DNA from: Nannocystis sp.
GTDB taxonomy: Bacteria > Myxococcota_A > Polyangia > Nannocystales > Nannocystaceae
NCBI RefSeq assembly: GCF_016717175.1
Contig: NZ_JADKFZ010000004.1
Direction: 5' to 3' (one strand)
Length of the DNA stretch: 64,000 nt
This document shows, piece after piece, positions 7,153 through 54,938 of the stretch; the stretch's first letter is position 1, and every line of letters starts with the position of its first letter. Below the pieces are notes generated by a model. The model saw nothing but the letters and a program-made list of their open reading frames with translations. It searched no databases and had not been told where the DNA came from. The translations under genes were made by a program, and so were the position numbers.

Positions 7153-7182
7153 GGACCATGTCATCAACCGGAGCTGGAACCG

Positions 7183-8043: not shown

Positions 8044-8207
8044 GCCAGTCGCGGGCTGAGCTCCATGGCGCGTCGCGGGCGAGCTCGGCGACGCGGCGGG
8101 CGAGCTCGCGCCAGGCGCCGTTCACACCCCATGAGTTCGGCGGCCGCGTCGAGGAGCTCGCGGTTGCGGCGGTGGCTGGCGATCGCGGGCTGCTATGCTG
8201 CGACGCG

Positions 8208-9827: not shown

Positions 9828-11585
9828 TCAGAGCTTCGGGTCGAACTTCACCTTGGTGACGGTGAGGCCGATGTAGTCGAGGGTGCCGAAGTCCTTGAGG
9901 TTGCTGTCGCCCACGCAGACCTTCCAGGCGCCGGCCGGCGCCTCGCCGAGGAAGTCGTTGAAGTCGACGCCCGGGCCCTTGAGGTGGGTCGGGTTGTACT
10001 CGCAGAGCGAGTCGTCCTTGCACACGATCTTGTCCGCGGCGATGGTGGTGCCCATCTTCGACCCGTTGGTGACGCCGCCGTTCTTGAAGGTGACGGGGAA
10101 GTCCTTGCTGAGGTCGGAGCTGTCGTTGCAGCAGCCGGTGCCGTCGTCCGGGAGGGCGCTGTTGCCGGGGCGCTGGAGGACGGTGAGGACGGTGCCTGCG
10201 GGGCTCTGCAGCTTGATCGTGACGTCGCCGATCCACGGGTGGTCGAGCCCGACGGTGAGCTGGACGTTACCGACGAAGGCGAGGTCGACGTTCTCGGCGA
10301 TGGCGATGTCGGTGCAGAGCATCGTGTCGAGGTTGCCGTTGTACTTGTCGTCGAGGAGGGCGAGGGCGAGGTCGGGGGCCTCGGCCAGCTCGTCCTCGCT
10401 GTTGCCCATGCACTTGTTCTTCTCGGCGGCGCCGACGACGATCTGGTCGCAGAGCGGCCCGAGGGCGTCGAGGATCGCGGTCTGGTCGCCGGCGGCGACG
10501 CCGGCGGTGCCCATCGCGGTGACCAGGTCGCCGACGAGGGCGCCGAAGTCGTCGATGGTGATCGTCGTCATGTCGGCGTCCATGAGCATCTCGTGCGAGC
10601 TGGTCATGTCGCGGCACTCGTTGCCGACGCCGACGCCCTCGTCGATGCCGGCGCCGGGGGAGTCGACCTCCTGGCCGTACTTGGTCGGGCCGTCGATGCC
10701 GCCGACCTGGCGGGTGAGGCAGGTGTTGAGGCGGGCGAAGTCGCTGGCGGCGAAGAAGGTGTTGATCGCGTCGTTGACCGCGACCACGCCGACGAAGGAG
10801 TCCGTGAGGTCCGGGGTGCCGATCAGGCCCTTGATCGCGGGCTTGCGGCCGACGCGCTGGTAGACGGTGGCGTCGCTGGTGAGGTCCTCGACGATGTCGC
10901 CCTTGAGGCTGCCGAGGGTGTCGAGGATCGCGGTCTTGTCGGCGTCCGTGAGCTCCGGGTGCATGCCCTGGTGGGCGTCGAGGGCGGTGACGAAGTCGGC
11001 CGCGAAGTCGTTGAAGTCCTGGTCGGAGATGCCGAGGCCGGCGTGGGCTTCGAGCATGCTCAGGCCGCCGTAGGTGACCCCGGGGCACTCGGCGACCTCG
11101 CCGAGCTGGTCGGTGACGAGGCCGATGAGGGCGCCGCCGTCGACGTCGTTGTTGAGGAAGTAGCCGTTGATCTTGTCGTCGAGGAGGACGCCGCCGACGA
11201 AGGCGGTGACGAGGTCCTTGATGCCGCCGTCACCCGCACCGCCGAGGCGCGTGCACAGGTTGTCCTGGGGGCCCTCGGTGGTGTCGGTGGTGGTATCGGT
11301 GGTCGGATCGCCGGAGGTGCTCGGGTCCGTCGACGGGCCGCTGGTGCTGTTGTCCGTGGTCGCCGTGTCCGTGGTCGGCGTGTCCGTGTCGGTCGTCGGC
11401 GGCGTCGTGTTGGTCGTGGTCGGGTTGCTGGGGTCGTCCGTCGTCGTGCCGGCCTCGGTCTCCGTGCCCTCCGTGGTGGTGAGGGAGGGGTTGGCCGGAC
11501 AGGCCGACAGGACCGGCGCGAGGCCGGCGAACAGAAGGCCGAGGCCGAGCTTCGACGAAAGGGGGTTCAGAGTTTTCTTGTGCAT
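9828..11585 (-). CDS. lipoprotein with two truncated-haemoglobin (group 1 trHb)-like domains and a C-terminal proprotein-convertase P-domain
   Basis: Lipobox LAPVLSAC. Thr/Pro-rich linker. Domain 1 ends …SMLEAHAGLGISDQDFNDFAADFV…LGSLKGDIV, matching the trHb F-helix/proximal-His region. Domain 2 has the same layout but appears to lack the His. C-terminus has HPWIGDVTIKLQSPAGTVLTVL (P-domain-like). Confidence 0.5.
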   Translation of the reverse strand: MHKKTLNPLSSKLGLGLLFAGLAPVLSACPANPSLTTTEGTETEAGTTTDDPSNPTTTNTTPPTTDTDTPTTDTATTDNSTSGPSTDPSTSGDPTTDTTTDTTEGPQDNLCTRLGGAGDGGIKDLVTAFVGGVLLDDKINGYFLNNDVDGGALIGLVTDQLGEVAECPGVTYGGLSMLEAHAGLGISDQDFNDFAADFVTALDAHQGMHPELTDADKTAILDTLGSLKGDIVEDLTSDATVYQRVGRKPAIKGLIGTPDLTDSFVGVVAVNDAINTFFAASDFARLNTCLTRQVGGIDGPTKYGQEVDSPGAGIDEGVGVGNECRDMTSSHEMLMDADMTTITIDDFGALVGDLVTAMGTAGVAAGDQTAILDALGPLCDQIVVGAAEKNKCMGNSEDELAEAPDLALALLDDKYNGNLDTMLCTDIAIAENVDLAFVGNVQLTVGLDHPWIGDVTIKLQSPAGTVLTVLQRPGNSALPDDGTGCCNDSSDLSKDFPVTFKNGGVTNGSKMGTTIAADKIVCKDDSLCEYNPTHLKGPGVDFNDFLGEAPAGAWKVCVGDSNLKDFGTLDYIGLTVTKVKFDPKL

Positions 11586-11751
11586 ACAGCCAAAATCCTT
11601 GCCAGGGGCGAAAGGCGGCGATGATACAGAGTCGCGCCTGCGAGCGCGAGGGGGCCGTCGACCCCAAAACGCGGGGGATGGCGCCGCGATCGATCACACG
11701 ACTGGACCGGGGGCGCTGGGTTGCCGTTCGGCCCGTGCGGCCGCGCAGCGA

Positions 11752-12606
11752 TCACACGTGGCGGGCCGGCGCGGCGAACAGGTGCAGCATCGGCTCGACG
11801 AACAGGGGCGAGGGCAGCACGATGCTGGCCAGCGTCCACGCGTGGGCGGCGACCGCAGGCCAACGGGCGACGCGCAGCGGCAGCTCGAGCGTCAGCAGGG
11901 CGCCCTGGATCACGAAGTAGAGGCCCATCGAGGCGGCCATCGCGGGGCCGAGGGCGACGCCGATGAACCACGCGTGGATCGTCGCGCTGGCGAGGAAGCT
12001 GAGCAGGAGGCCGCGACCAGGGCGGCGGCGGCGGGCCCAGGGCAGGAAGAAGTGCTCGCGCAGCCAGCGGTTGACGACCAGGTTCCAGCGCTCGCCCCAG
12101 AACTCGCGCAGCGAGCTCGCGGCGATCGGGGTGCGCTGGATCGGCGGGCCGTGGGCGCCGAGCAGCGCCAGCACGCCGCGGAACAGGGCCTCGCCGGTCT
12201 CGCCGAGGGCGTACATCGCGAGCATGCCGCAGCCCCAGCGCAGCGGGCCGGGGTCGTGGAGCAGGGCGGTGCACAGGGCCAGGAGCCCGAGCGGGACCCA
12301 CAGCGCGACGCGGAGGAAGGCGCTGAGATCGACGCGGGCGGGGCCCCACTGAAGGCGGCGGGTGTCGATCAGGGCGACGACGAAGACCATGCGCGCGAGC
12401 GGGGTCATCGGCCGGCGGGCGACGGCGAGGTCGTAGCAGCGGGCGACGCCCCAGAGGGCCAGCAAGGCGACCACGGCGCGCAGCAGCGGGTCGCCCGGGA
12501 GGACCAGGCTCCACGGCAAGAGCAGGGCCGCGAGGCCGAGGCCGAGGCCGCGTCGCCACGGGGCACCAGCGGTGACGAGGGCGGCGAGCAGGAGGAGTGC
12601 GAGCAC
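11752..12606 (-). CDS. MBOAT-family membrane O-acyltransferase-like protein
   Basis: Polytopic membrane protein with FWGERWNLVVNRWLREHFFLP and a conserved His in ASATIHAWF, reminiscent of the MBOAT/AlgI/DltB core. Confidence 0.45.
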   Translation of the reverse strand: MLALLLLAALVTAGAPWRRGLGLGLAALLLPWSLVLPGDPLLRAVVALLALWGVARCYDLAVARRPMTPLARMVFVVALIDTRRLQWGPARVDLSAFLRVALWVPLGLLALCTALLHDPGPLRWGCGMLAMYALGETGEALFRGVLALLGAHGPPIQRTPIAASSLREFWGERWNLVVNRWLREHFFLPWARRRRPGRGLLLSFLASATIHAWFIGVALGPAMAASMGLYFVIQGALLTLELPLRVARWPAVAAHAWTLASIVLPSPLFVEPMLHLFAAPARHV

Positions 12607-12618
12607 GAGGCCGGGGCT

Positions 12619-14034
12619 CTAAGGGCAGTAGCGGGAGGACGGGTTGACGGAGTCGCAGGTGTTGAGGACCGCGTTCTTGCCCTTGGCCACGGAGGCGGTC
12701 TCGATGTGGATGTGCGGGCCGGAGGAGCAGCCGGAGTTGCCGCTGTGGGCGATGAGCTGGCCCTGATCGAGGTGGGTGCCGTTGCCGACGCCGGGCGCGA
12801 GGTCGTTGATGTGGAGGTAGTAGATGAAGAGGTCGTTGGCGCCGTTGTCGGGGTCGCCGCAGTCGGCCTTGAGCTTCACGAAGTTGAAGGCGTTCCAGCA
12901 GGCCTGGGTGCAGCCGTTGTTGTAACAGTTGGGGAATCCCAGGGCGGAGCTGACGACGGTGCCGGCCATGCCGGCGTAGATCGGTGTGCCGACGGCGGTG
13001 CCGTAGTCGATGCCGTAGTGGCTGCCGCCGCCGCCGCAGGCGCTGTAATTTTGGGTGACGACGCCGGGCGGGGTGTCGAGGCAGCAGTCGCCGCCGTTCT
13101 GGACCTGCTTGCACTCGTCGGCGACGCCGGGCGGGTTCTGCTGGCAGCCCTCGGCGCAGGTCTCGCTGCTCTCGGTGGCCTTGCCGACGCACTGGTAGAG
13201 GACGTTGGGGTCGCCGCCGGGGAGGCCGCCGCCGCAGTAGGGGCCGTCGCCCGAGGCGGCGCCCTGGCAGGGATCGCCCTCGGGGTTGCACGCGTCGGCG
13301 ATGCCGGGGGGGTTGACCTTGCAGCCGCTCTTGCAGGTCTGCTTGTCGGCGGTGCCGCCGTTTTGACAGTTGTAGAGCGCGCCGGGATCGCCGCCCATCA
13401 GGGTGCCACCACAGTACTTGCCGTTGCCGCTCTGGGCCGAGGCGCAGGGGTCCTGGGCGATCTGCTTGCAGGCGTTGTTCTCACAGCCGGCCGGGCAGGG
13501 GGTGGCGCTGACGGTGTTGCCGCCGATGCACTGGTAGACGCTGTTGTGATCGGCGAGGCCGCCGAGCGCGGCGCCGCAGTACTCGCCGTCGCCGGCGCCC
13601 ATGCACGGGTCGCCGGGCTGCCCGGTGTCGTTGGTGTCGTTGGTCGTGCCGTTGTCCGTGGCGGTGCCGGGCTGGGTCGGGTCGCCCGTGCTGTCCGGCG
13701 AGGTGGTGGGATCCTGGGTGGTCGCGTCGGGGCAGAGGGTGAGCTCGGCGCAGGGCGGGCTGGTGTTCGCGGTGTCGCCGGTGGTCGGCGGGCCGGTGGT
13801 GCTGCCGACGTCGCTGTCGCCGCTGCTGGCGGTCGCGCCGGAGCTGCCGGTGGATTGACTGGCCCCGGTGATCCCGGTCGGGTTGCTGGACGAGAAGCCG
13901 TTGTTGCCAGCGTCGCCGCAGGCGGCGAGCAGCAGCGTCAGGCCGAGGTGTCGGGTCCAGACCGAGGTGGTTGTCGAGGTCGGGGGCGGCGTGCGGGCTG
14001 GCCTGCGCGGCACGAGGGCGGTGAGGGCCGACAT
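12619..14034 (-). CDS. M23-family (LytM-type) metallopeptidase lipoprotein with three Cys-rich repeats
   Basis: Lipobox LTLLLAAC. Three repeats of G.YCGG.L.GGDP..LY.C..G……C..GC..N. C-terminal HYGIDYG…GPHIHIE, i.e. the HxxxD…HxH M23 motifs. Confidence 0.75.
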   Translation of the reverse strand: MSALTALVPRRPARTPPPTSTTTSVWTRHLGLTLLLAACGDAGNNGFSSSNPTGITGASQSTGSSGATASSGDSDVGSTTGPPTTGDTANTSPPCAELTLCPDATTQDPTTSPDSTGDPTQPGTATDNGTTNDTNDTGQPGDPCMGAGDGEYCGAALGGLADHNSVYQCIGGNTVSATPCPAGCENNACKQIAQDPCASAQSGNGKYCGGTLMGGDPGALYNCQNGGTADKQTCKSGCKVNPPGIADACNPEGDPCQGAASGDGPYCGGGLPGGDPNVLYQCVGKATESSETCAEGCQQNPPGVADECKQVQNGGDCCLDTPPGVVTQNYSACGGGGSHYGIDYGTAVGTPIYAGMAGTVVSSALGFPNCYNNGCTQACWNAFNFVKLKADCGDPDNGANDLFIYYLHINDLAPGVGNGTHLDQGQLIAHSGNSGCSSGPHIHIETASVAKGKNAVLNTCDSVNPSSRYCP

Positions 14035-14140
14035 GCTCGCAGGCTAACGCGATCGCCGCGTCCCCGGCAATGTCACGGCCGGTCAAACGCGCCCGCCAGC
14101 GACACGTGCAGGCCGGCGCACGGCTCGGGTATGGTAGCGG

Positions 14141-15480
14141 GCATGCGATCCTTATCCTCGGTGCAGTGGGCGGCGGCGTGGCTGGCGGTGGCGACCGCCT
14201 GCGGGTCTGGCACGGACGACACGGAGGTGAGCTTCGGTCCCGGGGTCGGCACGATGGAGGGCACGACGCAGGCGGTGATGTCGACCTCGACGAGCCCGAC
14301 GACGCCGACGACCACCGAGACGCCGACGGGGAGCAGCGACGCGAGCGCGACGGGCAGCAGCGGCGAGGTTGGCAGCACCACATCGGGGACGACGGCCGGC
14401 AGCACGGGCGCGGTGGACAGCAGCACGACGGACATCACCGGCGATATGACGACGGGGGAGGTCTGCGAGGCGCCGGGGATCTTGCTGGTGTGCGACGACC
14501 AGGACGACGACCCCTTCCACGCGCTCGGGCTCGGCTGCGAGGGGGCGCTGGAGAACACGATCCCGATCCAAAAGATGCAGTTCAAGTCGAACAAGTACGG
14601 GTTCAAGGTGGCCCGCGGCTTCGGTGAGGCGGAGGACCCGGACATGCCGGGCAAGCTGCTGTTTCGTCCGCGCGAGGGCGAGAAGTTCCTCGTGATCAGC
14701 ACCGGGCGGATCGCCGACCTGCAGCCGGACGGGGTGCTGATCGAGACCAAGCCGCAGTTCGACAACGACAACAACTTCAACCCGGACGATCCGAACGCCT
14801 TGCCGGCGCCGATGAGCCCGGTGGTCGGCAGCAACTCGGGCAAGGGCGGCACGCCGTCCCAGGACTGCGACGGCGTCCACGACTGCTCGGACAGCATCGA
14901 CCCCAACTGGAAGCTCGGCAACGAGGACCCCAACGACCTGCTGTGGGCCAGCCTCGAGGTGGCGGTGCCGGCGGGCACCCACGGCTTCGGCTTCGATGTG
15001 GCCTACTTCTCGTCGGAGTACCCGGAGTTCGTCGGCGAGAAGTTCAACGACATGTTCATCGGCTGGGCGACCAGCGAGGTGTACACGGGGAACGTCACCT
15101 TCATCAACAAGCAGCCGTTCACTGTGACGGCGCTGGCGCCCGAGATGGAGTCGGCGGGCTTCATCGGCGACGCGCCGGAGCTGGCGGGGACCGGCTTCGA
15201 GGGCCACGGCTCGACCGGCTGGGCGACGATCAACGCCCAGGCGAGCCCGGGCGAGACCCTGGTGTTCGCGTTCGCGATCATGGACATGGGCGACAGCAGC
15301 AAGGCGACGCTGGCGCTGCTCGACAACTGGCGCTGGAGCTGCGTCGGCTGCGTGCCGATGGAACAGGACCCCAGCTGCGGCAAGCCGCAGCACCCGAAGT
15401 GCTGCGGTCTGTGCGTCGAGAAGCCCGATGACCCGAAGTGCGGCACGATGGGCCACCCGCCGTGCTGCGAGGGTAAGTGA
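14141..15480 (+). CDS. hypothetical secreted lipoprotein with a Cys-rich C-terminus
   Basis: MVAGMRSLSSVQWAAAWLAVATAC lipobox, then a Thr/Ser-rich linker, then a globular region. Ends …CCGLCVEKPDDPKCGTMGHPPCCEGK. The track's 1437-aa ORF upstream of 14141 is an artefact. Confidence 0.5.
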
Positions 15481-41778: not shown

Positions 41779-44457
41779 ATGTCCCGAGGTTCAGGATGGG
41801 CGGCGCTGGTGGTGCTGACGCTGGCGAGCCCGGTGGTGGCTGCTCCGCCGCTGCTGCCAGGGGACGCGACCGGGGAGGGTCGCTCGCTGCTGCGGGACGT
41901 CGATCGCACGCGCACCAACGTGGCCGGGGAGGCGGACGCGGCGGCGGTGGTGGCCAATCCCGCGAACATGGGCTTCTTGAAGGCGATCGGCGGGGTGATC
42001 GAGGGGTCGTGGACGCGGGCGACAGCGCAGCGGCGCGGCAGCGGGGTCGGGGCCTTCGTGGCGCTGCCGCTGTCGCTCAAGCTGTTCGGGCGCAGCGTGG
42101 CGGAGAGTTTCTTGGCGCTCGGGATCGGGTACCAGCACCTGCGGCCGACCAGCGTGTGGTTCCCGCAGGGGCAGGTCGCGGCCTACGAGCTCGGCGGGCG
42201 GACTGCGGCGGATCTGCCGTATCACAAGGTGTCGCTGTCGGCGGCGCTGCCGTTGATGCGCTGGGCGCCGGGGCTGGCGCTCGGGCTGTCGTACAGTCGC
42301 TTGTGGTCGGCGCGTAACCTGGCGGCGGACGACCTGAACCAGGTCGATCTGGCGATCGGGTATCGGCCGCATCGGGTGGTCGCGGTGGGGCTGGTGGCGC
42401 GGGCGATCAACATGCCGCGGGCGCACGGGGACGCGACGATCGTGCCGTCGCTGCCGGCGGTGGTCCAGCCCTTCGAGCTCGACCCGGAGCTGGCGCTGCG
42501 ACCGATCCGCGGGACGCGGGCGCTCGAGCTGGCGGTGGGGGCGAGGATCGTGCCAGTGCAGCCGGTGCTGGACCCGCGTTACGCGTTGCCGGTGCTCTCG
42601 CCGCGGGTGCGCGTGGAGGCGGGCGGGCGCGGGGTCCGGGTGTTCGCGGAGGGCGAGCGCTACGCGAGCGCGACGGCGTCGGGGTCCGCCGCGGGGCTGC
42701 GCTTCATGACGGGGGTGGAGTTCGACCTGGCGAATGTCGGGCTGGCGGTGGCGCCTTCGTTCGGCAGCGGTGGCGGCGGCGCGGCGGGGGTGCAGGGCTT
42801 CGCGGGCAAGCTGCGGGTGTCGGCGGAGCGCTATGCGAGCCTGGCCGATCGGACAGGTGAGGCGCTGCGGGTGGACGTCGGCGCGTACGCGGGGGACCGC
42901 GGGATGTTCCGCCTGGTCGAGCTCATCGATCGCCTGGGCGAGCAGCACGGGGCGCTGCTGCTGCTCGAGGTCGAGACGCTGCGCCTGGGCTACGCGCAGA
43001 TCGAGGAGGTGCGCGAGGCGCTGCTGCGGCTGCGGGCGCGCGGCGGGCGGGTCGCGGTGTATCTGCGCGGCGGGGGGATCCGCGAGTACTTCCTGGCGAG
43101 CGCGGCGGAGCGGATCTTCAGCCACCCGAACTCGCGGCTGTCGATCGTCGGGCTGCGGGTGGAGGTGTTCTTCTTCGCCGATCTGCTGGCGAAGCTGGGG
43201 GCGCGGGCGGAGTTCGTGCGGGTGGCGGAGTACAAGTCGCGGCCGGAGCAGTTCGAGCTGCGCAGCAGCAGCGAGCCGTCGGCGACGCAGCGGCAGCTGC
43301 TGGTGACGGACACGTGGAATCACCTCGTACGCCTGATCGGGCGCGGACGCGGGAAGACGGAGAAGCAGGTGGCGGACTGGGTCGACGCGGCGCCGCACGC
43401 CCCGGAGGGGGCGCTCGGGGTGGGGCTGGTCGACGAGCTGGCGTACGTCGACGAGCTCGAGGCGAGGCTCGGGAGCTGGCTCGGGCGGCGGGTGAAGCTG
43501 AAGGCGCCGGGCAAGCGACCGGCGCACGCGGAGGCGTACGGGCCGGGGCCGCAGGTGGCGGTGCTGCACATCGAGGGGACGATGAGCGACGGGGTGAGCC
43601 TCGAGATCCCGATCGTCGGCAGCAAGCTGGCGGGGAGCGAGACGCTGGTGAAGCAGATCGACGCGCTGCGGGAGGATCGCCGGGTGAAGGCGGTGGTCGT
43701 GCGCATCGACAGCCCGGGCGGGTCAGTGGCGGCGGCCGACGCGATGACGCGGGCGCTCGAGCGGACCGCGAAGGTGAAGCCGGTCGTGATCTCGATGGGC
43801 AACGTGGCGGCGTCGGGCGGCTACTACGTGGCGACGGCGGGGCAGTACATCTTCAGCGACGCGCTGACGCGGACGGGGAGCATCGGGATCTTTCGGCCGA
43901 AGGTCGACCTGTCGGGCACGCTGAAGCTGTTCGGCGTCGGTGTCGATGAGATCAGCGTGGGGGCGAAGGCGGGGCTGTACTCGTGGTGGAAGCCGTACAC
44001 GCCGGAGGAGCGCGCGGCGGCCCAGAGCGGCATCGAGGTGCAGTACCAGATCTTCGTGCAGCGGGTCGCGCGGGCGCGGGCGATGGCGCCGGCGGAGGTC
44101 GACCGTGTGGCGCGCGGGCGGATCTGGAGCGGGGTGCGGGCGCAGGAGATCGGCCTCGTCGACGCGTACGGCGGCCTGCGCGAGGCGGTTTTGCACGCGC
44201 GGGCGCTGGCCAAGCTGGGGCCGACGGACGGCGAGCTGCGGCACTATCCGCGGCCGCCGAATCTGGTGGAGCAGATCGACGCGCTGTTCGGGCTGCGCCT
44301 GCCGTCGCCCCTGGGGCTGCGTGGCGGGTCCGTGGCTGGGGCGGAGCTCGTCGACGGCGCGCTGCTCTGGGTGCTGCGGCGTTTACCCGCGACCGTGTGG
44401 TGGATGTCGGGACCGGAGCCGCTGGCGATGGCGGAGGAGGTCGTCACCCTGGAGTAA
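41779..44457 (+). CDS. sppA: signal peptide peptidase SppA (S49, two-domain 67K type) with a ~350-aa N-terminal extension (paralog 1)
   Basis: Has RIDSPGGSVAAADAM and GNVAASGGYYVA (S49 Ser/Lys dyad regions). Signal peptide. The N-terminal domain is homologous to that of the second paralog. Confidence 0.8.
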   Translation: MSRGSGWAALVVLTLASPVVAAPPLLPGDATGEGRSLLRDVDRTRTNVAGEADAAAVVANPANMGFLKAIGGVIEGSWTRATAQRRGSGVGAFVALPLSLKLFGRSVAESFLALGIGYQHLRPTSVWFPQGQVAAYELGGRTAADLPYHKVSLSAALPLMRWAPGLALGLSYSRLWSARNLAADDLNQVDLAIGYRPHRVVAVGLVARAINMPRAHGDATIVPSLPAVVQPFELDPELALRPIRGTRALELAVGARIVPVQPVLDPRYALPVLSPRVRVEAGGRGVRVFAEGERYASATASGSAAGLRFMTGVEFDLANVGLAVAPSFGSGGGGAAGVQGFAGKLRVSAERYASLADRTGEALRVDVGAYAGDRGMFRLVELIDRLGEQHGALLLLEVETLRLGYAQIEEVREALLRLRARGGRVAVYLRGGGIREYFLASAAERIFSHPNSRLSIVGLRVEVFFFADLLAKLGARAEFVRVAEYKSRPEQFELRSSSEPSATQRQLLVTDTWNHLVRLIGRGRGKTEKQVADWVDAAPHAPEGALGVGLVDELAYVDELEARLGSWLGRRVKLKAPGKRPAHAEAYGPGPQVAVLHIEGTMSDGVSLEIPIVGSKLAGSETLVKQIDALREDRRVKAVVVRIDSPGGSVAAADAMTRALERTAKVKPVVISMGNVAASGGYYVATAGQYIFSDALTRTGSIGIFRPKVDLSGTLKLFGVGVDEISVGAKAGLYSWWKPYTPEERAAAQSGIEVQYQIFVQRVARARAMAPAEVDRVARGRIWSGVRAQEIGLVDAYGGLREAVLHARALAKLGPTDGELRHYPRPPNLVEQIDALFGLRLPSPLGLRGGSVAGAELVDGALLWVLRRLPATVWWMSGPEPLAMAEEVVTLE

Positions 44458-44508
44458 GCGACCCCCGCGCCTCGTTTTTCGGTACCCTCCAGCCACGCGG
44501 AGGTTTTC

Positions 44509-45243
44509 ATGGCGCTCACGCCCGAACAGGAGTGGACCTTGGTGGGATGCGGGCTCGTGGCCCATGCCGATGAGATCCTCGATATCGGCGAGTGGGACGA
44601 GGTGCTCCGCTACGTCGGGTCGACCCTGAGCGAGGCGGACCAGCAGGTGTGGATGGAGATTCTCTCCGACCAGGATCAGCTGGAGCAGCGCTTCGGCGAG
44701 CTCAGGCCGCTGCCGGAGGGGAGCGGCGAGGAGTTGCTGCGGCGCTGCTGGCAGATGGCGCTGGCGGACGGGGTCGGGACGGACATCGAGGCGAGCGTGC
44801 ACGACCGCATCGCCCGGCGAGTCGGCGTGGACCTCGATGTGGTGGCGCGCTGGCGTGAGACCTGGACCCGGCAGGCGCACGCGCGCGCGGAGCTCACCGT
44901 GAGCCTGGCGGCGATGTTCGTGAACCTCGACGGGCACCTCGATTTTCACGAGGCGATTCACTTCGACAACCTGCTCGAGCGGCTGCCGATCCCGGTCGGG
45001 CGGCGGGTCGAGCTGTCGGAGCTGCTGCACTCGCCGCCGACCTTCGAGGCGCTGGTCGAGCGGCTGATGACGCTCGACACGGCCGAGCGGGTGCGCGCGC
45101 TGCACTCGCTGGTGCCGCTGCTGCGCGCGAGCCGTCGCGGCGGGCGTGAGCGCGAGCTGTTCTTCTCGCTGTCGCGCAAGGTGCTGGGGAGCCAGCCCGG
45201 GGAGGTCGAGCGGCTGCTCGACCCCGACGCGGGCAACCAGTGA
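44509..45243 (+). CDS. TerB-family (tellurite-resistance TerB-like) protein with two TerB-like repeats
   Basis: LRRCWQMALADGVGTDIEASVHDRIARRVG matches the TerB signature. A second degenerate copy is in the C-terminal half. Confidence 0.5.
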   Translation: MALTPEQEWTLVGCGLVAHADEILDIGEWDEVLRYVGSTLSEADQQVWMEILSDQDQLEQRFGELRPLPEGSGEELLRRCWQMALADGVGTDIEASVHDRIARRVGVDLDVVARWRETWTRQAHARAELTVSLAAMFVNLDGHLDFHEAIHFDNLLERLPIPVGRRVELSELLHSPPTFEALVERLMTLDTAERVRALHSLVPLLRASRRGGRERELFFSLSRKVLGSQPGEVERLLDPDAGNQ

Positions 45244-46667: not shown

Positions 46668-49600
46668 TCAAGGTCCGGCGTCGCGCGCGGGGGTTGCGGT
46701 CTGCGGGGCCGCGTAGGGGAAGATGTCCGAAGCGCGCAGCTCGACCAGCTCGGCCTGCAGCAGCTGGCGCAGCGCGGCGAGGTCGATGCGCCGACGATCG
46801 GCGAGCACGCTGACGATCGCGGGGGCGGTGAAGTGGTGCTGCAAAGCTTGCAGCTGCGGTGCGGCGAGCGACTGCAGGGTTGCGAGCTCCCAGGCACGCG
46901 GGTCGCCGGTCTCGCCGCGCTCGGCCCATACTTGGACCCAGTCGGGCACGCGTCGCGGGGGGATGCGGGTGGCGACCATCTCGCGGGTGAGGGCGACGCG
47001 GGCCGCGGCGATGCGATCGTCGCCGGGATCGGGGGCACGCAGGATCTCGAGCAGGAGCGTGAGGGCCTCGCGGCTCTTGTCGGCCTGGGTGCCGAGGCGG
47101 CCGAGCAGGGCGGCGCCGTCGATGTCGCGGGCGCCGGCGATGAGCAGGCCGGAGGCGCTGTAGGCGAGGCCGCGGGCCTCGCGGATCTGCTGGAACACGA
47201 GGCCGCTCATGTCGCCGCCCAAGATCTGGTTGAGCAGGCGCGCCGCGGGGCGATCGCTGCGGGGCAGCGGCGGGCTGGCCAGGGCGACCTCGATCTGGGC
47301 CTGGGCCATGTCGCGGTGGAGGAAGAAAATTGTCGGGGCGGCGAGTGATCGCAGGGCCCGTGGCGGGCGCGGGGGGACGGGCTTGCCGGCGCTCGCGGGC
47401 AGGGCGGTCACCAACGCGTCGGCGATGCGGGGGCCGAAGTAGAGGTGATGACGCGAGCTGTCCGCGAGGACAGCCAGCTCGCGGGCGAGCTCGGGGCCGC
47501 GGGCCTGGCGGAGCTGGCGGTCGCCCGGGCGGGTGAGGATGTCGCTGGCGGGGCCGCGGCGGGCGTACTCGGCGAGGGCCTCGGCGAGGGCCTCGGGGTC
47601 GTCCTGCTCGTCGCGGCGGAGGCTGAGGGTGTTGGCGAGGAGGTCGCGGACGGTGTCGTCGTCGAAGCCGGGGCGGCGCAGCCAGGTGTCGAGGAGGGCG
47701 AGGCTCTGCTCGAGGTGCTCGTCGACGCCGGTGACGAAGATGCGGGTCTGGTCGGCGCCGCAGTCGGTGTCGATGGTGGTGCCGAGCTGGAACAGGCGGC
47801 GCTGGAGCGCCTCGGCGTCGAGGTCACCGGCGCCGGAGAGGGCGAGGAGGTCGAGGGCGTGGCCGAGGAGCGGGCGCTGGCGGGTGCCGAGCTCGAAGCG
47901 GAGGGTGAGGGAAAACAGGTCGCTGCGGCGGTTCTGGGCGGCGATCAGGGGGCCGGCGGGGGTGCTGCGGCGGGTGTAGTCGCGGCCTTCTTGCAGCCAC
48001 ACGGGGTCGGGGTCGGGGGCGGCCTCGGCGAGCAGCTCGGCGGCGAAGCGGCTGATGCGGGCGGGGTCGATCGGCACCGGCGTGATCACCGGCTTGGGCA
48101 TCTTCGGCGGGTCGTGGCGGCCGCGCTTGCGCACGATCGCTACGTGGTCGGCGCCGAGGTAGGTGGCGGCGACGCGGAGGATGTCGCCGTGGGTGACGCG
48201 GGCCATGGCGGCGACGAAGCGGACGTGCTCGGGCCAGCTGCGGCGCTCGAGGTAGGCGTCGGCGATCCAGCTGACGCGGCCGTTGTTGGACTCGCGGGCC
48301 ATCTGCTCGCGGATCTGCTCGTGGAGGACGATCGCGTCGATGTCGGCCTGGGTGAAGGCGCCGGCCTTGAGGTCGGTGATGACGGATCGCAGGAGGCGCT
48401 CGACCTCGGCGTGGCTCTGGTCGTCGCGGGCGACGCCGGTGAGCGCGAAGTAGCCGCCGTCGACCAGCTGCTCGCCGTGGCCGTCGGCGTCGGGCAGCTC
48501 ACCCGAGAGCAGGAGGCGGACGTTGAGCAGGCCGCTGACGTCGTTGTCGACGAGCTCGGCGAGCACGGCGAGCGCGGGCTCGTCGGGGTGGCCGGCGGGG
48601 ACGGTGCGCCAGGCGAGGGTGACCGACTGCTCGCCCTCGGCGGTGATGATGCGCTCGATGCGACCGACGGGGCCGTCGAGGGCGCCGGGCGGGGGTGGTG
48701 GGAGCTGTCCCGGAGACCATGTCGCAAAGGCCAGCTCGAGGGCGGCGAGGGTGGCGACGGGGTCGAGGTCGCCGGCGAGGATCAGGGCGGCGTTGTTGGG
48801 GAGGTACCAGCGCCGGTGGTAGGCGACCATCTCGGCGAGGGCGGGGTTACGTAGGTGCTCGGCGTCGCCGAGGATCGTCTGGGTGCCATAGGGGTGGCGC
48901 GGGAACAGGGCCAGGCGCAGGGCCTCGTCCATGCGGTCCTCGGGGGTGTCGAGGCTGATGTTCTTCTCCTCGTAGACGGCCTCGAGCTCGGGGAGGAACA
49001 GGCGGAAGGTGGGCGCGGCGAGGCGCTCGGCCTCGACGCGGGCCCACGCGGCGAGGCGCGCGGCCGGGAGGTCGGCCATGTAGACGGTGGTGTCGTCGGT
49101 CGTGAAGGCGTTGACGTCGAGGATGCCGAGGCCGGCGTAGAGGCGGTCGAGCTCGTTGGGGATCGCGGTGACGGCCGCGGACTGCGTGGCGGCGTCGATG
49201 TCGGCGAGGATCGCGGCGCGCTCGCCGGGCGTGGAGCGCGGGAGCCGATCGTAGAGGGCGGCGGTGCGGGCGAGGTGCGGGGCCTCGGCGTCGGCGTCGA
49301 GGGTGCCGAGCCTGGCGGTGCCCTTGAACATCATGTGCTCGAGGTAGTGGGCGAGGCCGGTCGAGTGGGCGGGGTCGTGGCGGCTGCCGGCTCGAATCGC
49401 GATCCAGGCGGAGATCCGGGGCTGCTCGCGGTCGACGCTGAGGTAGACGGTGAGGCCGTTGGACAGGCGGTGGATCGTGACGGCGAGAGGGTCGTCGGGG
49501 AGCGGGGTGGGGAGGGGGGCGGGGGCGTCGGGGGCGTAGGCGATCGCGGTGGGGGCCGCCGGTGTGGGGGGCGACGCGGGGACGGGCGAGGGAGTGGTGG

Positions 49601-49682
49601 CGGTGCTTTCGGTCATGTCGCTGGGACGAGGGGCGCAGGCCAGGAGGGCCGCGAGGCAGAGCAGGAGGCGGGTGCGGCTCAC
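46668..49682 (-). CDS. M16-family (pitrilysin/insulinase-like) zinc peptidase lipoprotein, tandem M16 units
   Basis: GTG 49682 start overlaps the upstream stop (GTGA). Lipobox ALLACA. Inverted zinc motif HSTGLAHYLEHMMFKG. 1004 aa. Confidence 0.85.
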   Translation of the reverse strand: MSRTRLLLCLAALLACAPRPSDMTESTATTPSPVPASPPTPAAPTAIAYAPDAPAPLPTPLPDDPLAVTIHRLSNGLTVYLSVDREQPRISAWIAIRAGSRHDPAHSTGLAHYLEHMMFKGTARLGTLDADAEAPHLARTAALYDRLPRSTPGERAAILADIDAATQSAAVTAIPNELDRLYAGLGILDVNAFTTDDTTVYMADLPAARLAAWARVEAERLAAPTFRLFLPELEAVYEEKNISLDTPEDRMDEALRLALFPRHPYGTQTILGDAEHLRNPALAEMVAYHRRWYLPNNAALILAGDLDPVATLAALELAFATWSPGQLPPPPPGALDGPVGRIERIITAEGEQSVTLAWRTVPAGHPDEPALAVLAELVDNDVSGLLNVRLLLSGELPDADGHGEQLVDGGYFALTGVARDDQSHAEVERLLRSVITDLKAGAFTQADIDAIVLHEQIREQMARESNNGRVSWIADAYLERRSWPEHVRFVAAMARVTHGDILRVAATYLGADHVAIVRKRGRHDPPKMPKPVITPVPIDPARISRFAAELLAEAAPDPDPVWLQEGRDYTRRSTPAGPLIAAQNRRSDLFSLTLRFELGTRQRPLLGHALDLLALSGAGDLDAEALQRRLFQLGTTIDTDCGADQTRIFVTGVDEHLEQSLALLDTWLRRPGFDDDTVRDLLANTLSLRRDEQDDPEALAEALAEYARRGPASDILTRPGDRQLRQARGPELARELAVLADSSRHHLYFGPRIADALVTALPASAGKPVPPRPPRALRSLAAPTIFFLHRDMAQAQIEVALASPPLPRSDRPAARLLNQILGGDMSGLVFQQIREARGLAYSASGLLIAGARDIDGAALLGRLGTQADKSREALTLLLEILRAPDPGDDRIAAARVALTREMVATRIPPRRVPDWVQVWAERGETGDPRAWELATLQSLAAPQLQALQHHFTAPAIVSVLADRRRIDLAALRQLLQAELVELRASDIFPYAAPQTATPARDAGP

Positions 49683-50446
49683 GCCGGCGGGGTTCCTGGG
49701 TCGGGGAGGTATTCGTAGGTGCGCTCGATTGCGCGGAGGAGGGCGTCGCAGGCGAGGAGCGTGTTGACGGCGGCTGCGAGCGACGTGTTTGCGGCGATGA
49801 CGTCAGCGGTCGGATAGCCCTCGAGCAACGCGTCGTTGTGACGCTTGCCGAGGCAGAGCTGATCGGACGGGTGGGCCACGTCGTCGAGCAGCGAGCGGTC
49901 GGCGCGCCAGGCTGCGAGCAGCTCGGGGCACCGACAGTCTGCAGTATGTCGGCATAGCTGCAGAGCCCGGTCGGTGTTCTGGTAGAGCCATGCCTCGAGT
50001 TCCCAGTAGGGGACAAGCGTGAAATAGCGGGTCATGAGGCGATCGATCTCCGCGTCAGGTAGCTTCTCGCCTTGGAGGCGCAGGCGAACGTGAGTGAGGA
50101 TGTCGCGCTCGACGGCGGCTGCGTTCTCGCTCGGCTTTCGCTTGCGATCCGACCAGCGCCGGTCCGCGTCGACGTGGTGAAAGACGAACCGGTCGGGGAG
50201 CACTAGCTGGGTGGCGATGTAGCCGTAGAGCAGGCGCAGGTAGCGGTGGCGAGGGTTCTTGAATTGGTTTGCAGTCAAGACCTCGCGGGCCTGATCGTTG
50301 CCGGGCTCGAAACGAATGCGGTGGTTGTCGCAGCAGGGATCGAGGTGGCGGAACATCTTCTTGACGAGGAGCTCAATCGTCTCGAGAGCTCGCGGGCTTC
50401 CATCTTCGGTCAGCACTAGCACTGAGAACGCAGGCTCGCTCACCAC
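49679..50446 (-). CDS. TOPRIM-like / RloB-like partner protein of the adjacent ATPase (putative nuclease of a two-gene defence-type module)
   Basis: 255 aa. VLVLTEDGS (Glu) and FHHVDADRRW (DxD) resemble a TOPRIM-like catalytic layout. Overlaps the ATPase gene by 7 nt. GC is about 60% versus about 72% in the flanks. Confidence 0.5.
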   Translation of the reverse strand: MVSEPAFSVLVLTEDGSPRALETIELLVKKMFRHLDPCCDNHRIRFEPGNDQAREVLTANQFKNPRHRYLRLLYGYIATQLVLPDRFVFHHVDADRRWSDRKRKPSENAAAVERDILTHVRLRLQGEKLPDAEIDRLMTRYFTLVPYWELEAWLYQNTDRALQLCRHTADCRCPELLAAWRADRSLLDDVAHPSDQLCLGKRHNDALLEGYPTADVIAANTSLAAAVNTLLACDALLRAIERTYEYLPDPGTPPA

Positions 50447-51729
50447 AGACCTCGCGTCATGAGAATATCGCCGGGGCTCTCGATGCCGGCCTGGTAGCTC
50501 TCGAAGAAGTTGCGGGCGTCGCGTTCGGACATGTTCTGCCAGACGAGCTGCTCGGCGCCGTCGACGAGCTCGGACTTGCAGGTGATGAAGCAGGACTGGA
50601 CCTGCTCGATGGAACGGAACTCGACGTACTCGAAGAGGAGGGGGTTTTGGCTGGTGAGGAAGGCTTGGCGGTCGCCGATCGCTTCCATGCAGGCGGCTAT
50701 CCAGCGGTGATGGAGGCCGTTCACGAGCTCGTCGGCGATGACGTACGCGGGTGTGGCCGCGAGATAGTAGAAGAATGCGAGGAGGCGCTTTTGTCCGTAG
50801 CTCAGCAGATCATGGGTGATGGTGCGTCCATCGTTGCGCGTGAAGGTGAAGGCCGAGCCCCGGATATCGAACTTGCGAAGCTTGCCGTTCGGCGGATTTT
50901 CGATCTGGGCGATCAGTGGCCGCCAGGCAGCTTCGCGGACACCCATCGCCGCGGCGACCGCTACCAGGAAATTTAGGGCGGACCGGTCTTCGTTGCCCTC
51001 GGGTCCCGCTGTCACCCGGAGCTCGCCCGCAGGGCTGTCGTGTGCATGCGTTACGAGGGCGCCAAGCCGAAGAGGGGTGAAGTTGAGGCTTCGGGGCGAT
51101 GCCTCGCGATCGCCGAATTGTGTGATTCGCAAGAACGCCGTATTCGGAGTTCCTGATGTCTGCGACACCGGGGGGCGTCCGGTCATGGCGAGGAATGCGT
51201 CGAGCGATTCATCGAAGCGAAATACCGAGTCCAGGAACAGTAATTCGGTGGCCTCGCCGGCCCACAGGGGCAGTGGGTCGAGTTGCTCGAGGTTCTCGGA
51301 GAGGTAGTCACGGTGAAACGGTGAGAGCGGCGGCAGTGTCGTAGAGACGCCGTCGATCGTGACATTGGTACTCGTATGCGTACCGGTGAGCGTTACTGCT
51401 TCAGGAGGTGCGTGCTGCGACAAGCTGGCCTCGTAGCTGGCCTCATAGCCGCTGCGTCGCTCGTCTGGCTTCTCGATGAACGTGTTCCTGACGTGGATCG
51501 TTGCGGAGTGTTTCTCGTTGGCGAGCGTGTACTCCAGGTCGAATGCCTCGTTCTCAAGGGATGCGAGGCTACGGGAAGCTACACAGGCGATCAGCCCGAG
51601 CAGCGTCGTCTTGCCCGACCCGTTCTGCCCGAGCACCAGATTAATCCCGTCGTCGAAGCGCAGCTCCGTGCCGGGGCGGACGTTCCTGTACTGGTGGATC
51701 TTGAGGTGTTTGAGCTTCACGCCGGGCAT
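50440..51729 (-). CDS. ABC-type / AAA_21-family ATPase (OLD/AriA-like)
   Basis: Walker A LVLGQNGSGKTTLLG. ABC-signature-like LSYGQKRLLAFFYYLA. Walker B VIADELVNGLH. D-/H-loop TSQNP. An N-terminal KLKHLKIHQYRNV beta-strand as in RecF/OLD ATPases. Low-GC island. Confidence 0.75.
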   Translation of the reverse strand: MPGVKLKHLKIHQYRNVRPGTELRFDDGINLVLGQNGSGKTTLLGLIACVASRSLASLENEAFDLEYTLANEKHSATIHVRNTFIEKPDERRSGYEASYEASLSQHAPPEAVTLTGTHTSTNVTIDGVSTTLPPLSPFHRDYLSENLEQLDPLPLWAGEATELLFLDSVFRFDESLDAFLAMTGRPPVSQTSGTPNTAFLRITQFGDREASPRSLNFTPLRLGALVTHAHDSPAGELRVTAGPEGNEDRSALNFLVAVAAAMGVREAAWRPLIAQIENPPNGKLRKFDIRGSAFTFTRNDGRTITHDLLSYGQKRLLAFFYYLAATPAYVIADELVNGLHHRWIAACMEAIGDRQAFLTSQNPLLFEYVEFRSIEQVQSCFITCKSELVDGAEQLVWQNMSERDARNFFESYQAGIESPGDILMTRGLW

Positions 51730-51732
51730 GGG

Positions 51733-54371
51733 CTACTCCACCTCGACGAGGCCGGGGAGCAGGGCGAGGGCCTCGTCTTGCGGGAGGAACAGGAGCGCGA
51801 GCGGCAGGCGGGCGAGGGCGGCGGAGAGGGCGAGGGGGAGCTGTTGTTTGGCGTCGCGGCGCGACTGGAGGCGGGTGCGCAGGCCATCGTCGCCGGGCTG
51901 GGGGATGACTTGCTCGAGCAGGATGTCGACGAGGCGGCGCTGGCGGGGGAAGACGCGGAGGTCGAGCTCGATGCGGGCGGGGACGCCGGCCTTGCTGCGG
52001 ACGGCGGCGACGGCCTCGCGCAGGCCGCCGAATTCGTCGACCAGCTTGAGGTCCTTGGCGTCGGTGCCGGAGTAGACGTGGCCGCGGCCGAGCTCGTCGA
52101 CGCGCTCGATCGTCAGCTTGCGGCCCTCGGCGACGCGGCGGCGAAACAGGTCGTACACGCGGCGGATGGAGGCGTCCATGCGGGCGCGCTGGTCCTCGCT
52201 GAAGGGCTTGTAGAGGCTGGCGATGTCGGCGTTCTTGCCGCGGCTGAAGGTGCTGGTGGAGATGCCGAGCTTGGCGAGCAGGCCGGAGAGGTCGAAGTGC
52301 AGGCTGACGACGCCGATCGATCCGGTGATCGTGGTGGGCTGGGCGAAGATCTGGCGCGCGCCCATGGCGACGTAGTAGCCGCCGCTGGCGGCGACGTCGC
52401 CCATGGACACTACGATCGGAGGGCTCTTGCGCGGGGTCTTCTCGTGAGCCTCCTGTGTGCGCGAGACCTCGCGCCAGATCAGATCGGAGGCGAGGGCGGA
52501 GCCGCCGGGGCTGTTGACGCGCAGGACGATGCCCTTGCACATGGGGTCGGCGCGGAGGTTGCGGAGCTGCTGGACGAGGGTGTCGGCGCCGGCGAACTGG
52601 ATGTTGAGGAAGGGGATCGTTCGACTCTCGCCGTCGATGATGGTGCCCTCGACGAGCACGACGGCGGTGTAGGGGGCGTTGGCCCAGGTCGGGAGCTCGG
52701 GGTCGGTCTCGCCGAAGCTGGCGAACTTGACGCGGGCGCCGACGGCGGTGGAGATCGATTCGATGACCTCGTCGCGGTGGACGACCTTGTCGACCAGCTT
52801 GTGCGCGAGCGCCTGCTCGGGGCCGTGCGGGGCCTCGTCGATGAGGCCGCGGACCTGGTTCTGGGCGAGGCCGCGGGCCTGGGCGATGTCCTTGAGGATC
52901 TGGGCGTAGGTGTCGTCGAGGATCGCCTCGCGCTGCTGACGGTCGGGCTCGGAGGGGCCGCTGCGAGTGAAGCGCTCGTGGGCGCTCTTGTACTCGTTGA
53001 TGTAGAGGCCCTCGACGTTGACGCCGAGCTTCTCGAGGGCGCCCTTGAAGTAGAGGGTGGTGGCGGAGAGGCCGAAGGTGGCGAGCTCGCCGGCGGGGTG
53101 GATGTAGACCTGCTCGGCGACGCTGGCGAGGTAGTAGTCCTTGAGGTCGCCGCCCTCGAGGTAGGCGAAGACGTGGCCGCCGGCGTTGCGGACGCGGATG
53201 AGCGCGGCGCGGAGCTCCTGCAGGCTGGCCCAGCCGAGCTTGGCGGCGCGGGCGTCGACCAGGAGGATCGATCGCGGGCCGGCTTGCTCGGCGCGCGCGA
53301 GGCGTTCGAGCAGGCGGATGAGGGCGCGCTCGCCTTTCACTGCGGAGAGGTCGATGCGTTCGGCGTCGACCAGGCGCGGCCAGAAGACGCGGCCCTGGCG
53401 GGCGCTGCTGAAGCGGGCGGCGAGGCCGAAGCCGTCGACGCCGCCGGACAGGCCGGCGTGCATGCCGGCGCGGACGGTCATGAGGTCCCACGAGACGGCG
53501 AGGGCGACCGAGCCGCGCACGGCCTTGGCGTCGGCGACGACGGCGTAGGTGTTGCGGTCGAGGATGTGGGCCCGGACCTGCTCGACCTCGCCGGCGAGCT
53601 CGATGCCCTGGTAGCGGAAGGCGACGCGGCCGCGCGGGAGGACGCCGAGGTACTCGCCGAACTGCGGGGTGACGATGTCCGGGTTGCCGCGCCAGCGCGT
53701 GCGCACGCCGCCGGCGAGCTCGAGCATGCGGGTGCCGAGCGGGCGCAGGGCGAGCTCGCCGGTGACGGCGAACTCCTGCGGGAGGCTGCCCTCGGGTTGG
53801 AGGTCGGCGGGGCCGAGGCGGGCGACGGCGCCGACGGAGGCGTAGTTGCGGATGCGGACGAGGAGGCCGAGGTCGAGGTCGGGGCGGCGCAGGCTCTGGC
53901 CGCGGTCGAGCATCCAGTGCAGGCCGAGGCCGAGGGCGGCGACCTTGCCGTCGCCGGCGCTGAGGCCCCACGAGACCTTGGTGAAGTCGGGGTTCTGGGC
54001 GGCGCGGCTGTCGGTGTAGTTGCCGCCGAAGCTGGGGAGCACGCGCTGGACGCCGAGGCCGGTGGCGAAGCCGAGGCCGAGGTTGAGGCCGAGGAAGCCG
54101 CCGACGCCCGAGCCGCGTGTGAACGCGGAGGTCGATCGGTAGCCCATGATCACGGCGTCGAGGCCCTTCACGGCCGAGAGCAGGGCGGGGTTTAGCTCGA
54201 GGCTGCTGGCGTCGCCTTCGCCCGAGTAGTCGTGGATCGGGCGGTCGATGCCGTCGCTGGCGCCGCGGTCGACGGCGACCGGCTGCTGCGCGGCGGCGGG
54301 GGTGGTCAGCGTGGCGACGAGGGCGACGACGACGAGCGGGCCCCGTGGACCTGGCTTTGGGGACAGGGTGC

Positions 54372-54375
<4 letters not shown>
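51733..54375 (-). CDS. sppA: signal peptide peptidase SppA (S49, two-domain) with N-terminal extension (paralog 2)
   Basis: Has RVNSPGGSALASDLI and GDVAASGGYYVAMGA. Signal peptide LVVVALVATLTTPAAAQQ from ATG 54375. Stop is 3 nt before the ATPase ATG. Confidence 0.8.
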
Positions 54376-54823
<448 letters not shown>

Positions 54824-54938
54824 TCGGCCGCGACTGTACCGCAAGTCGGGCGATCCGCGGGGGCCGGTGCGGCGGCGCAGCAGGGCAAGTCGGGCGATCC
54901 GCGGAGGCCGACGCGGCGCAGCATGGCAAGTCGGGCGA

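Follow-up and report, generated by a model that had tools for sequence, protein, structure and literature searches.

The 64,000-nucleotide stretch of DNA analysed here (the window) comes, as its identical proteins indicate, from a metagenome-assembled genome (MAG) of Nannocystis sp. and not from the Polyangiaceae, the family in which an earlier note made from the letters of this DNA had placed its relatives. On its minus strand two adjacent genes, one for an ATP-binding cassette (ABC) ATPase and one for a smaller partner with a predicted TOPRIM fold, are lodged between the genes of an S49 and an M16 peptidase. Taken together, our data make it moderately probable that these two genes make up a self-contained conflict module of the kind 'ABC-ATPase sensor plus TOPRIM nuclease effector', which entered the protease operon in the ancestor of a clade and has since diversified in that operon by allele replacement and recombination. 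The genes and junctions concerned are the following (aa, amino acids).

50440-51729, minus strand: ATPase gene, ATG start, 429 aa; ABC ATPase (AAA_21, Rad50/SMC/AriA-like)
49679-50446, minus strand: partner gene, GTG start, 255 aa; predicted TOPRIM plus helical domain, like the C-terminal region of OLD, without an existing family model
51733-54453, minus strand: S49 (SppA-like) peptidase, flanking host gene; Pfam Peptidase_S49, 2.7e-69
46668-49682, minus strand: M16 (insulinase-type) peptidase, flanking host gene; Pfam Peptidase_M16 and M16_C
51727-51744, minus strand: upstream junction, GAGGTGGAG, followed by the S49 stop TAG (51733-51735), ccc and the ATPase ATG (51727-51729)
49679-49682, minus strand: downstream junction, GTGA, in which the TGA of the partner overlaps the GTG of M16

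Both open reading frames (ORFs) lie on the minus strand at the coordinates first given for them, with the junction letters as described, and the seamless coupling of the island to the operon is likewise evident, stops and starts abutting or overlapping at the S49/ATPase, ATPase/partner and partner/M16 boundaries. The TGA of the ATPase gene overlaps the start codon of the partner; the 7-nt overlap originally reported holds for the first GTG (50446, 255 aa) and becomes one of 4 nt (GTGA) from the second GTG (50443), which would yield 254 aa with an improved spacing to the Shine-Dalgarno sequence. The NCBI record of the identical protein (P0001) also has 254 aa, matching a start at this second GTG. 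The ATPase ends in a near-invariant G-L-W-stop, and the TGGTGA specifying tryptophan and stop contains the GTG start of the partner (50440-50446); the constancy of the last ATPase residue may therefore derive from translational coupling rather than from protein function.

Upstream of the pair, the stop of a Cpn10-like ORF (54372-54929) overlaps an in-frame ATG of S49 at 54375 (ATGA). This ATG is likely the true S49 start, giving a product of 880 aa instead of 906 aa, and the S49 proteins of relatives have 877-883 aa. With this start the Cpn10-like, S49, ATPase, partner and M16 genes are linked in a single chain, each overlapping or abutting the next. The complete gene order in this part of the window is DUF4159, an 802-aa protein, Cpn10-like, S49, ATPase, partner, M16 and a 445-aa protein, beyond which the opposite strand carries a TerB-like gene and another gene for an S49 peptidase. 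This second S49 (34% identical to the first) and the TerB-like gene occupy 41779-45243 of the plus strand, downstream of the operon and facing it, and the opposed arrangement is kept in the syntenic contigs.

The ATPase, its putative TOPRIM partner and known systems

Residue conservation in the ATPase was scored over 49 homologues, and its motifs and domains were located as follows.

51604-51630, minus strand: Walker A GQNGSGKTT, residues 34-42; G34, G39, K40 and T41 invariant
50791-50805, minus strand: ABC signature LSYGQ, residues 309-313; L309, S310, G312 and Q313 invariant
50728-50742, minus strand: Walker B VIADE, residues 330-334, followed by conserved H340/H341; D333 invariant, E334 and H340/H341 at least 90% conserved
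50830-51549, minus strand: hypervariable central insertion, residues 61-300, candidate trigger-sensing domain (identities by segment are given below)

The Walker A GQNGSGKTT, LSYGQ, ADELV and TSQNP motifs quoted in the earlier note are all present, and its assignment of the protein to the AAA_21 type is borne out by a Pfam match of 3.9e-15 and by a predicted SMC/Rad50/AriA-like fold. The score with AAA_21 (PF13304), 57 bits against a gathering cut-off of 27, together with the Walker A, signature, Walker B and H-loop motifs, places the protein in the AAA_21/AAA_15 ABC-ATPase clan; AAA_23, SMC_N, AAA_15 and AAA_13 were matched below threshold. Comparison values were 15-15.7 for the PtuA and retron ATPases, 15.7 for RecF and 12-13 for the OLD and GajA ATPases. 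Since the Walker A lysine, the S, G and Q of the signature and the Walker B aspartate are invariant, and the catalytic glutamate and the H-loop histidines are conserved to at least 90%, the ATPase looks catalytically intact and active. No coiled coil appears in its model. Where one would stand, the protein is predicted to carry a compact hypervariable domain of 240 residues, a mixed alpha/beta insertion (residues ~61-300) that was modelled confidently, with a predicted local distance difference test (pLDDT) score of 76-97 over blocks of 10 residues.

For the partner, both conservation and member-by-member library scans were based on 57 family sequences, and three candidate active-site positions stand out.

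50402-50407, minus strand: E14-D15, at the end of strand beta1 (residues 7-13), candidate TOPRIM glutamate; invariant in the 57 sequences; compare BpOLD E400
50162-50176, minus strand: H91-x-D93-x-D95, just after strand beta3 (residues 86-91), candidate TOPRIM DxD; invariant; compare BpOLD D455/D457
49994-49996, minus strand: E151, where the helical domain begins (helix 151-154) after strand beta4 (residues 141-144), candidate second-metal ligand; invariant; compare BpOLD E508, helix alpha1H

The motifs LTEDGS and HHVDADRR, from which a TOPRIM-like protein had first been suspected, are indeed there, and the structure prediction supports this suspicion with an invariant E/DxD/E set and a TOPRIM plus helical fold like that of an OLD TOPRIM nuclease. 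The model has a four-stranded alpha/beta core with a conserved glutamate after beta1 and the DxD after beta3, as a TOPRIM domain should. In BpOLD the metal ligands are E400 (the TOPRIM glutamate), D455/D457 (the DxD) and E508 in the first helix of the helical domain (PMC6755086). By order and spacing, E14, D93/D95 and E151 of the partner would be their equivalents, these positions being 79 and 56 residues apart in the partner versus 55 and 51 in BpOLD; on the same basis no equivalent is assignable for BpOLD E404 (possibly D15), T506 and K562 (possibly R184 or R140).

Searched as a single sequence, the partner gave no meaningful match in Pfam, PADLOC, NCBIfam or PHROGs, in line with the earlier note, which had been unable to assign the pair to a named system from sequence alone, and the 57 members gave none in Pfam, PADLOC and NCBIfam, the best being DUF4276 at an E-value of 0.065 in 2 of the 57. 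Neither phmmer nor the family profile found a meaningful match among PDB sequences. A Foldseek search of PDB returned no significant match either, so that the fold assignment is good and not beyond doubt. Such a protein could be TOPRIM- or Rossmann-like and yet no nucleic-acid nuclease, acting instead as a nucleotide or small-molecule phosphohydrolase or as a binding protein that depends on metal and is controlled by the ATPase; we judge this improbable. At 50% identity the partner family comprises at least 536 representatives; the best 150 of these 536 are all short (146-315 aa), with no ATPase-TOPRIM fusion among them.

The intact ATPase and the predicted TOPRIM partner support the split ATPase plus TOPRIM-effector architecture of the OLD/PARIS/RloB kind that had been proposed for the pair. 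In PADLOC and NCBIfam the ATPase matched an AriA/AAA_21-type model, mad3, PtuA, GajA, AbiLi, RecF and Rad50, all of them generic or N-terminal matches far under the equivalog cut-offs. The OLD family, represented in our comparison by Class 1 (P2 Old, TsOLD) and Class 2 (GajA, BpOLD), has ATPase and TOPRIM in one polypeptide, whereas here they are two ORFs in all ~70 loci. On account of these separate ORFs, of the lack of fusions among the best 150 of 536 representatives and of the lack of any Toprim_Old (PF20469) match in the 57 partner members, membership in OLD Classes 1-3 was rejected. In PARIS (AriA/AriB; 'Class 4 OLD'), AriB carries DUF4435 (PF14491) and AriA, an ATPase of the AAA_15 type, has a helical bundle as its insertion; in contrast, DUF4435 was found in 0 of the 57 partners, PADLOC gave no AriB match and the insertion is of mixed alpha/beta type, and PARIS membership was rejected as well. 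The match of the ATPase to the PADLOC AriA model PDLC02980 is probably generic, since it covers nearly the same residues (279-366, against 273-366 for Pfam AAA_21) and nearly the same profile positions (207-303, against 220-303 of 304).

MADS Mad3/Mad4 and AbiL are like this pair in having, after an AAA_15/21 ATPase, a small protein of the TOPRIM superfamily, DUF4276 or RloB (PMC11464382, PMC12065111), and mad3 is the second-best PADLOC match of the ATPase (1.6e-13), AbiLi being matched too, weakly (1.5e-08). However, the NCBIfam MADS3 model gave the ATPase 31.7 bits against a cut-off of 420, and the partner had no mad4, DUF4276, RloB or AbiLii match beyond the DUF4276 result mentioned above. 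MADS has, moreover, an associated methyltransferase, whereas an all-vs-all BLAST of the ORFs within 3.5 kb at 75 loci revealed no conserved third gene, methyltransferase included; what recurred were generic paralogue families, variously placed on either side and either strand. MADS membership was rejected on the MADS3 and DUF4276 results and the lack of a third gene, and membership of the AbiL/RloB type because the partner matched neither RloB (PF13707) nor AbiLii and the AbiLi match of the ATPase is weak. In the Septu and retron PtuA-type systems the partner is the HNH nuclease PtuB, not a TOPRIM protein, and with the NCBIfam PtuA model the ATPase reached 24.9 bits against a cut-off of 500.

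The pair therefore resembles the split OLD/PARIS/AbiL/MADS3-4 systems yet falls outside each of them in family-level tests, as the earlier note had anticipated in suggesting that it may be a new variant, and it is unlike OLD, PARIS, AbiL and MADS in partner family, ATPase insertion and host range. Literature searches found no published description of the pair, which is not proof of its absence from the literature.

Residence in the protease operon

The gene order of the window, pair included, recurs as far as the contigs reach in L001, L005/6, L007/8, L011/12, L014, L076, L088, L156 and L157, and the pair occupies the same site in at least 10 syntenic contigs, whose flanking proteins are 62-86% identical to those of the window. 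In a more distant contig, L083, whose Cpn10-like, S49 and M16 proteins are 65%, 61% and 52% identical to those of the window, only about 30-60 bp separate S49 from M16 and the pair is missing, an empty site that confirms the pair as an insert between sppA and M16. At this site (L083, 5900-6060) the S49 stop stands at 5969 and the M16 start follows; inspection by eye of the site revealed no remnant of the pair and no repeat. The insertion is old and not recent, because it is common to contigs with flanks only 62-86% identical to those of the window.

The pair might belong functionally to the operon, for instance as an ATP-driven regulator or assembly factor for S49 and M16. The co-orientation of the genes and the overlap of stops and starts from the Cpn10-like gene through to M16 would agree with this role, as would the synteny in at least 10 contigs and a consensus scan that found no promoter or terminator inside the operon on the coding strand, which is weak evidence since the scan was not tuned for myxobacteria. 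Nonetheless, we consider it extremely improbable. The pair is also found in many unrelated settings that lack these proteases, the L083 operon does without the pair, coupling to M16 is not universal (82-bp gaps separate the genes in L001 and L011) and the pair evolves at a tempo unlike that of its flanks; on these and the following grounds the role was rejected as the main explanation. The N-terminus of M16, MSRTRLLLCLAALLAC (49630-49682, minus strand), resembles the signal peptide of a lipoprotein, lipobox cysteine included, and inspection by eye of the ATPase and the partner found no evident hydrophobic, signal-peptide-like N-terminus in either. An M16 protein that appears to bear an export signal and a pair seemingly without one make a common biochemical role with the proteases unlikely.

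The difference in tempo can be followed by comparing alleles at the same site, for which amino acid identities were as follows.

L005 versus L008: flanks (S49, M16) 84-85%; ATPase 41%; partner 52%
L001 versus L011: flanks 85-87%; ATPase 76%; partner 46%
L001 versus L076: flanks 73-74%; ATPase 61%; partner 69%
Window versus L157: flanks 84-86%; ATPase 47%; partner 82%

In these comparisons the divergence of the flanks and that of the pair are uncoupled. Within the ATPase the differences are concentrated in one segment: identity between the proteins of the window and L157 is 77% for residues 1-60, drops to 17% for 61-300 and returns to 80% for 301-429, and mean pairwise identity among the 49 homologues is 0.63, 0.22 and 0.65 over the same segments. 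Between same-site alleles in general, residues 61-300 are 14-26% identical and the flanks 65-86%. The middle domain is thus hypervariable and reassorts independently of the partner, a pattern that would be expected of a recognition domain engaged in an arms race. Its place between the two ATPase half-domains is that of the Ocr-binding insertion of AriA, a coiled-coil insertion that binds this phage trigger (PMC10802264).

A windowed calculation shows a GC dip and not a uniform GC, as the claim of a low-GC island had implied. In 400-bp windows GC is 0.595-0.64 within the pair versus 0.70-0.76 outside; the pair as a whole has 0.628 against 0.732 in its 4-kb flanks and marks the minimum when the 64 kb are scanned in windows of 2051 bp, of which 0.08% reach so low a value. 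GC at third codon positions (GC3) is 0.78/0.80 in the pair and 0.94/0.95 in the two flanking genes, so that the dip is not merely a matter of amino-acid composition. The same deficit accompanies the family elsewhere: in 52 of 52 loci the pair lies below its 4-kb flanks, by a mean of -8.0 GC points and with no positive difference (in the across-locus control, 0.5% of 2-kb windows are that low), and its GC follows that of the host (r 0.86, slope 0.89; 49 non-redundant loci). A deficit present in every locus and tracking host GC is no mark of recent arrival; the dip is a standing property of the gene family in every host. The earlier note had read horizontal acquisition from the low GC; the insertion is upheld, but the idea that the dip results from recent horizontal transfer was rejected given the family-wide deficit and the ancient insert. 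The dip might stem from low expression or codon selection, from recurrent exchange, or from selection favouring a sequence richer in AT. Elsewhere in the window two large ORFs with a GC3 of ~0.78 and no Pfam match, at 5677-8121 (minus strand, 814 aa) and 11164-15480 (plus strand, 1438 aa), may be further foreign or fast-evolving genes.

The same observations bear on the idea that ATPase and partner form a housekeeping pair of myxobacteria for DNA repair or chromosome maintenance, comparable to RecF, SbcCD or Rad50-Mre11, which we hold to be very unlikely. RecF and Rad50 are among the NCBIfam models that the ATPase does match, but it scores 37.9 bits with RecF (cut-off 172) and 32.2 with Rad50 (cut-off 700), over ~45 N-terminal residues only, and a coiled coil is lacking in the model. 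The pair is found in varied locations and in several copies in some genomes, and the operon of L083 offers an empty site; its middle domain is hypervariable and its alleles are mosaic; its GC3 is 15 points under that of its neighbours, and it has diverged much more than its flanks have. Bit scores, variable loci, copy number and the empty site, together with the missing coiled coil, led us to reject RecF/Rad50-SbcC membership, and with the hypervariability they set aside a repair function as the main explanation.

The pair as a candidate conflict module

A genome scan identified 62 loci, nearly all in Myxococcota, the hosts being Nannocystis, Sorangium, Polyangium, Byssovorax, Archangium, Cystobacter, Hyalangium and Kofleriaceae; 8 genomes carry 2-3 copies, and in essentially all of the ~70 loci the ATPase gene is immediately upstream of the partner. 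Outside the Nannocystaceae-like clade the pair stands in varied, unrelated neighbourhoods that are largely housekeeping-looking. Its architecture, this accessory distribution, the hypervariable domain and the mosaic alleles indirectly support a place in the same class as OLD, Gabija GajA, PARIS AriA/AriB, AbiL and MADS3-4, and by analogy with these the pair is probably a new branch of OLD/PARIS type anti-phage systems. A more detailed proposal, which we advance tentatively and as slightly more open to doubt than to acceptance, is that of an undescribed split OLD-like branch restricted to Myxococcota, with a TOPRIM effector that no existing model covers, a swappable sensor domain, a polymorphic 'immune locus' of reassorting alleles in the protease operon of the Nannocystaceae-like clade and a wider ATPase clade that swaps partners.

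OLD-type TOPRIMs include both DNA nickases (GajA, BpOLD) and tRNases (AriB, P2 OLD), and hence the substrate of the partner is not predictable. A working mechanism can be sketched from PARIS, P2 OLD and other nuclease-NTPase systems (PMC11464382; PMC10802264; bioRxiv 10.64898/2026.07.10.737580; bioRxiv 10.1101/2025.07.10.664194). By analogy with PARIS and P2 OLD, the conserved head of the ATPase would join it to the partner in a complex, in which a dimer or oligomer of the ATPase would keep the nuclease inactive. The variable middle domain could then sense a product of a phage or mobile genetic element (MGE), or an aberrant nucleic acid, and ATP binding or hydrolysis with the ensuing rearrangement would free or activate the two-metal nuclease, which would cut DNA or tRNA and so halt the infection, perhaps through death or arrest of the cell. 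According to this scheme the pair would have entered the Cpn10-like/S49/M16 envelope-protease operon in the ancestor of the Nannocystaceae-like clade, and it is probably co-transcribed and translationally coupled with that operon.

Several points weigh against such a defensive function. The putative match between the active sites of the partner and BpOLD is one of order and spacing, not of superposed coordinates. The partner found no match in phages and plasmids by tblastn or in IMG/VR by pattern scan, nor did the ATPase in plasmids by tblastn, and the family cannot consequently be tied to a mobile element. Its neighbourhoods are not recognisable defence islands, and a long, tightly coupled residence in one operon is unusual for a defence cassette.

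Part of these features could be accommodated by a selfish toxin-antitoxin or addiction module, with the TOPRIM protein as toxin and the ATPase as antitoxin or chaperone, which would persist by post-segregational or anti-deletion effects or through strain conflict and not by sensing phages. It would have the same tightly coupled two-gene architecture; PARIS itself behaves as a type II toxin-antitoxin pair (PMC10802264), and the long, stable stay inside the operon and the persistent GC3 deficit fit as well. However, a hypervariable surface domain of the ATPase that reassorts apart from the partner suggests that what is recognised is an external ligand subject to change and not an invariable toxin, and the searches described above did not find the pair family in plasmids and phages, both of which commonly carry addiction modules. 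Both the module and this mode of persistence are in our opinion unlikely, and they are compatible with a phage-sensing role.

If the pair is indeed a sensor-effector conflict module, it adds to a major theme in bacterial immunity, that of ABC-ATPase plus TOPRIM systems such as OLD, Gabija and PARIS. To our knowledge, trigger recognition by the ABC-ATPases of such systems is known for a few examples only. The same-site alleles keep the ATPase core and the nuclease and exchange the middle domain of 240 residues, so that domain swaps could map the determinants of specificity; the architecture is one that specialists would expect, and an operon-embedded polymorphic locus with a swappable sensor makes a useful, testable system. 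Myxobacteria have very large genomes with poorly charted defence repertoires, and a partner family of at least 536 representatives (50% identity) without a Pfam, NCBIfam, PADLOC or PHROG model gets no name from current annotation pipelines. The locus also illustrates that a conflict module can stay long, and translationally coupled, in a housekeeping operon, which makes a GC dip an unreliable clock for recent transfer.

A sister branch of the ATPase, with ~40% identity to that of the window (L158, 3405-5335; L159, 3370-5329), has no TOPRIM-like gene downstream. Immediately upstream it has instead a conserved protein of ~195-204 aa with no Pfam match, which an hhalign probability of 0.9% marks as no relative of the partner family. 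This unrelated upstream protein suggests that this ATPase clade swaps partners, as is known for other AAA_15/21 defence ATPases (PMC11464382).

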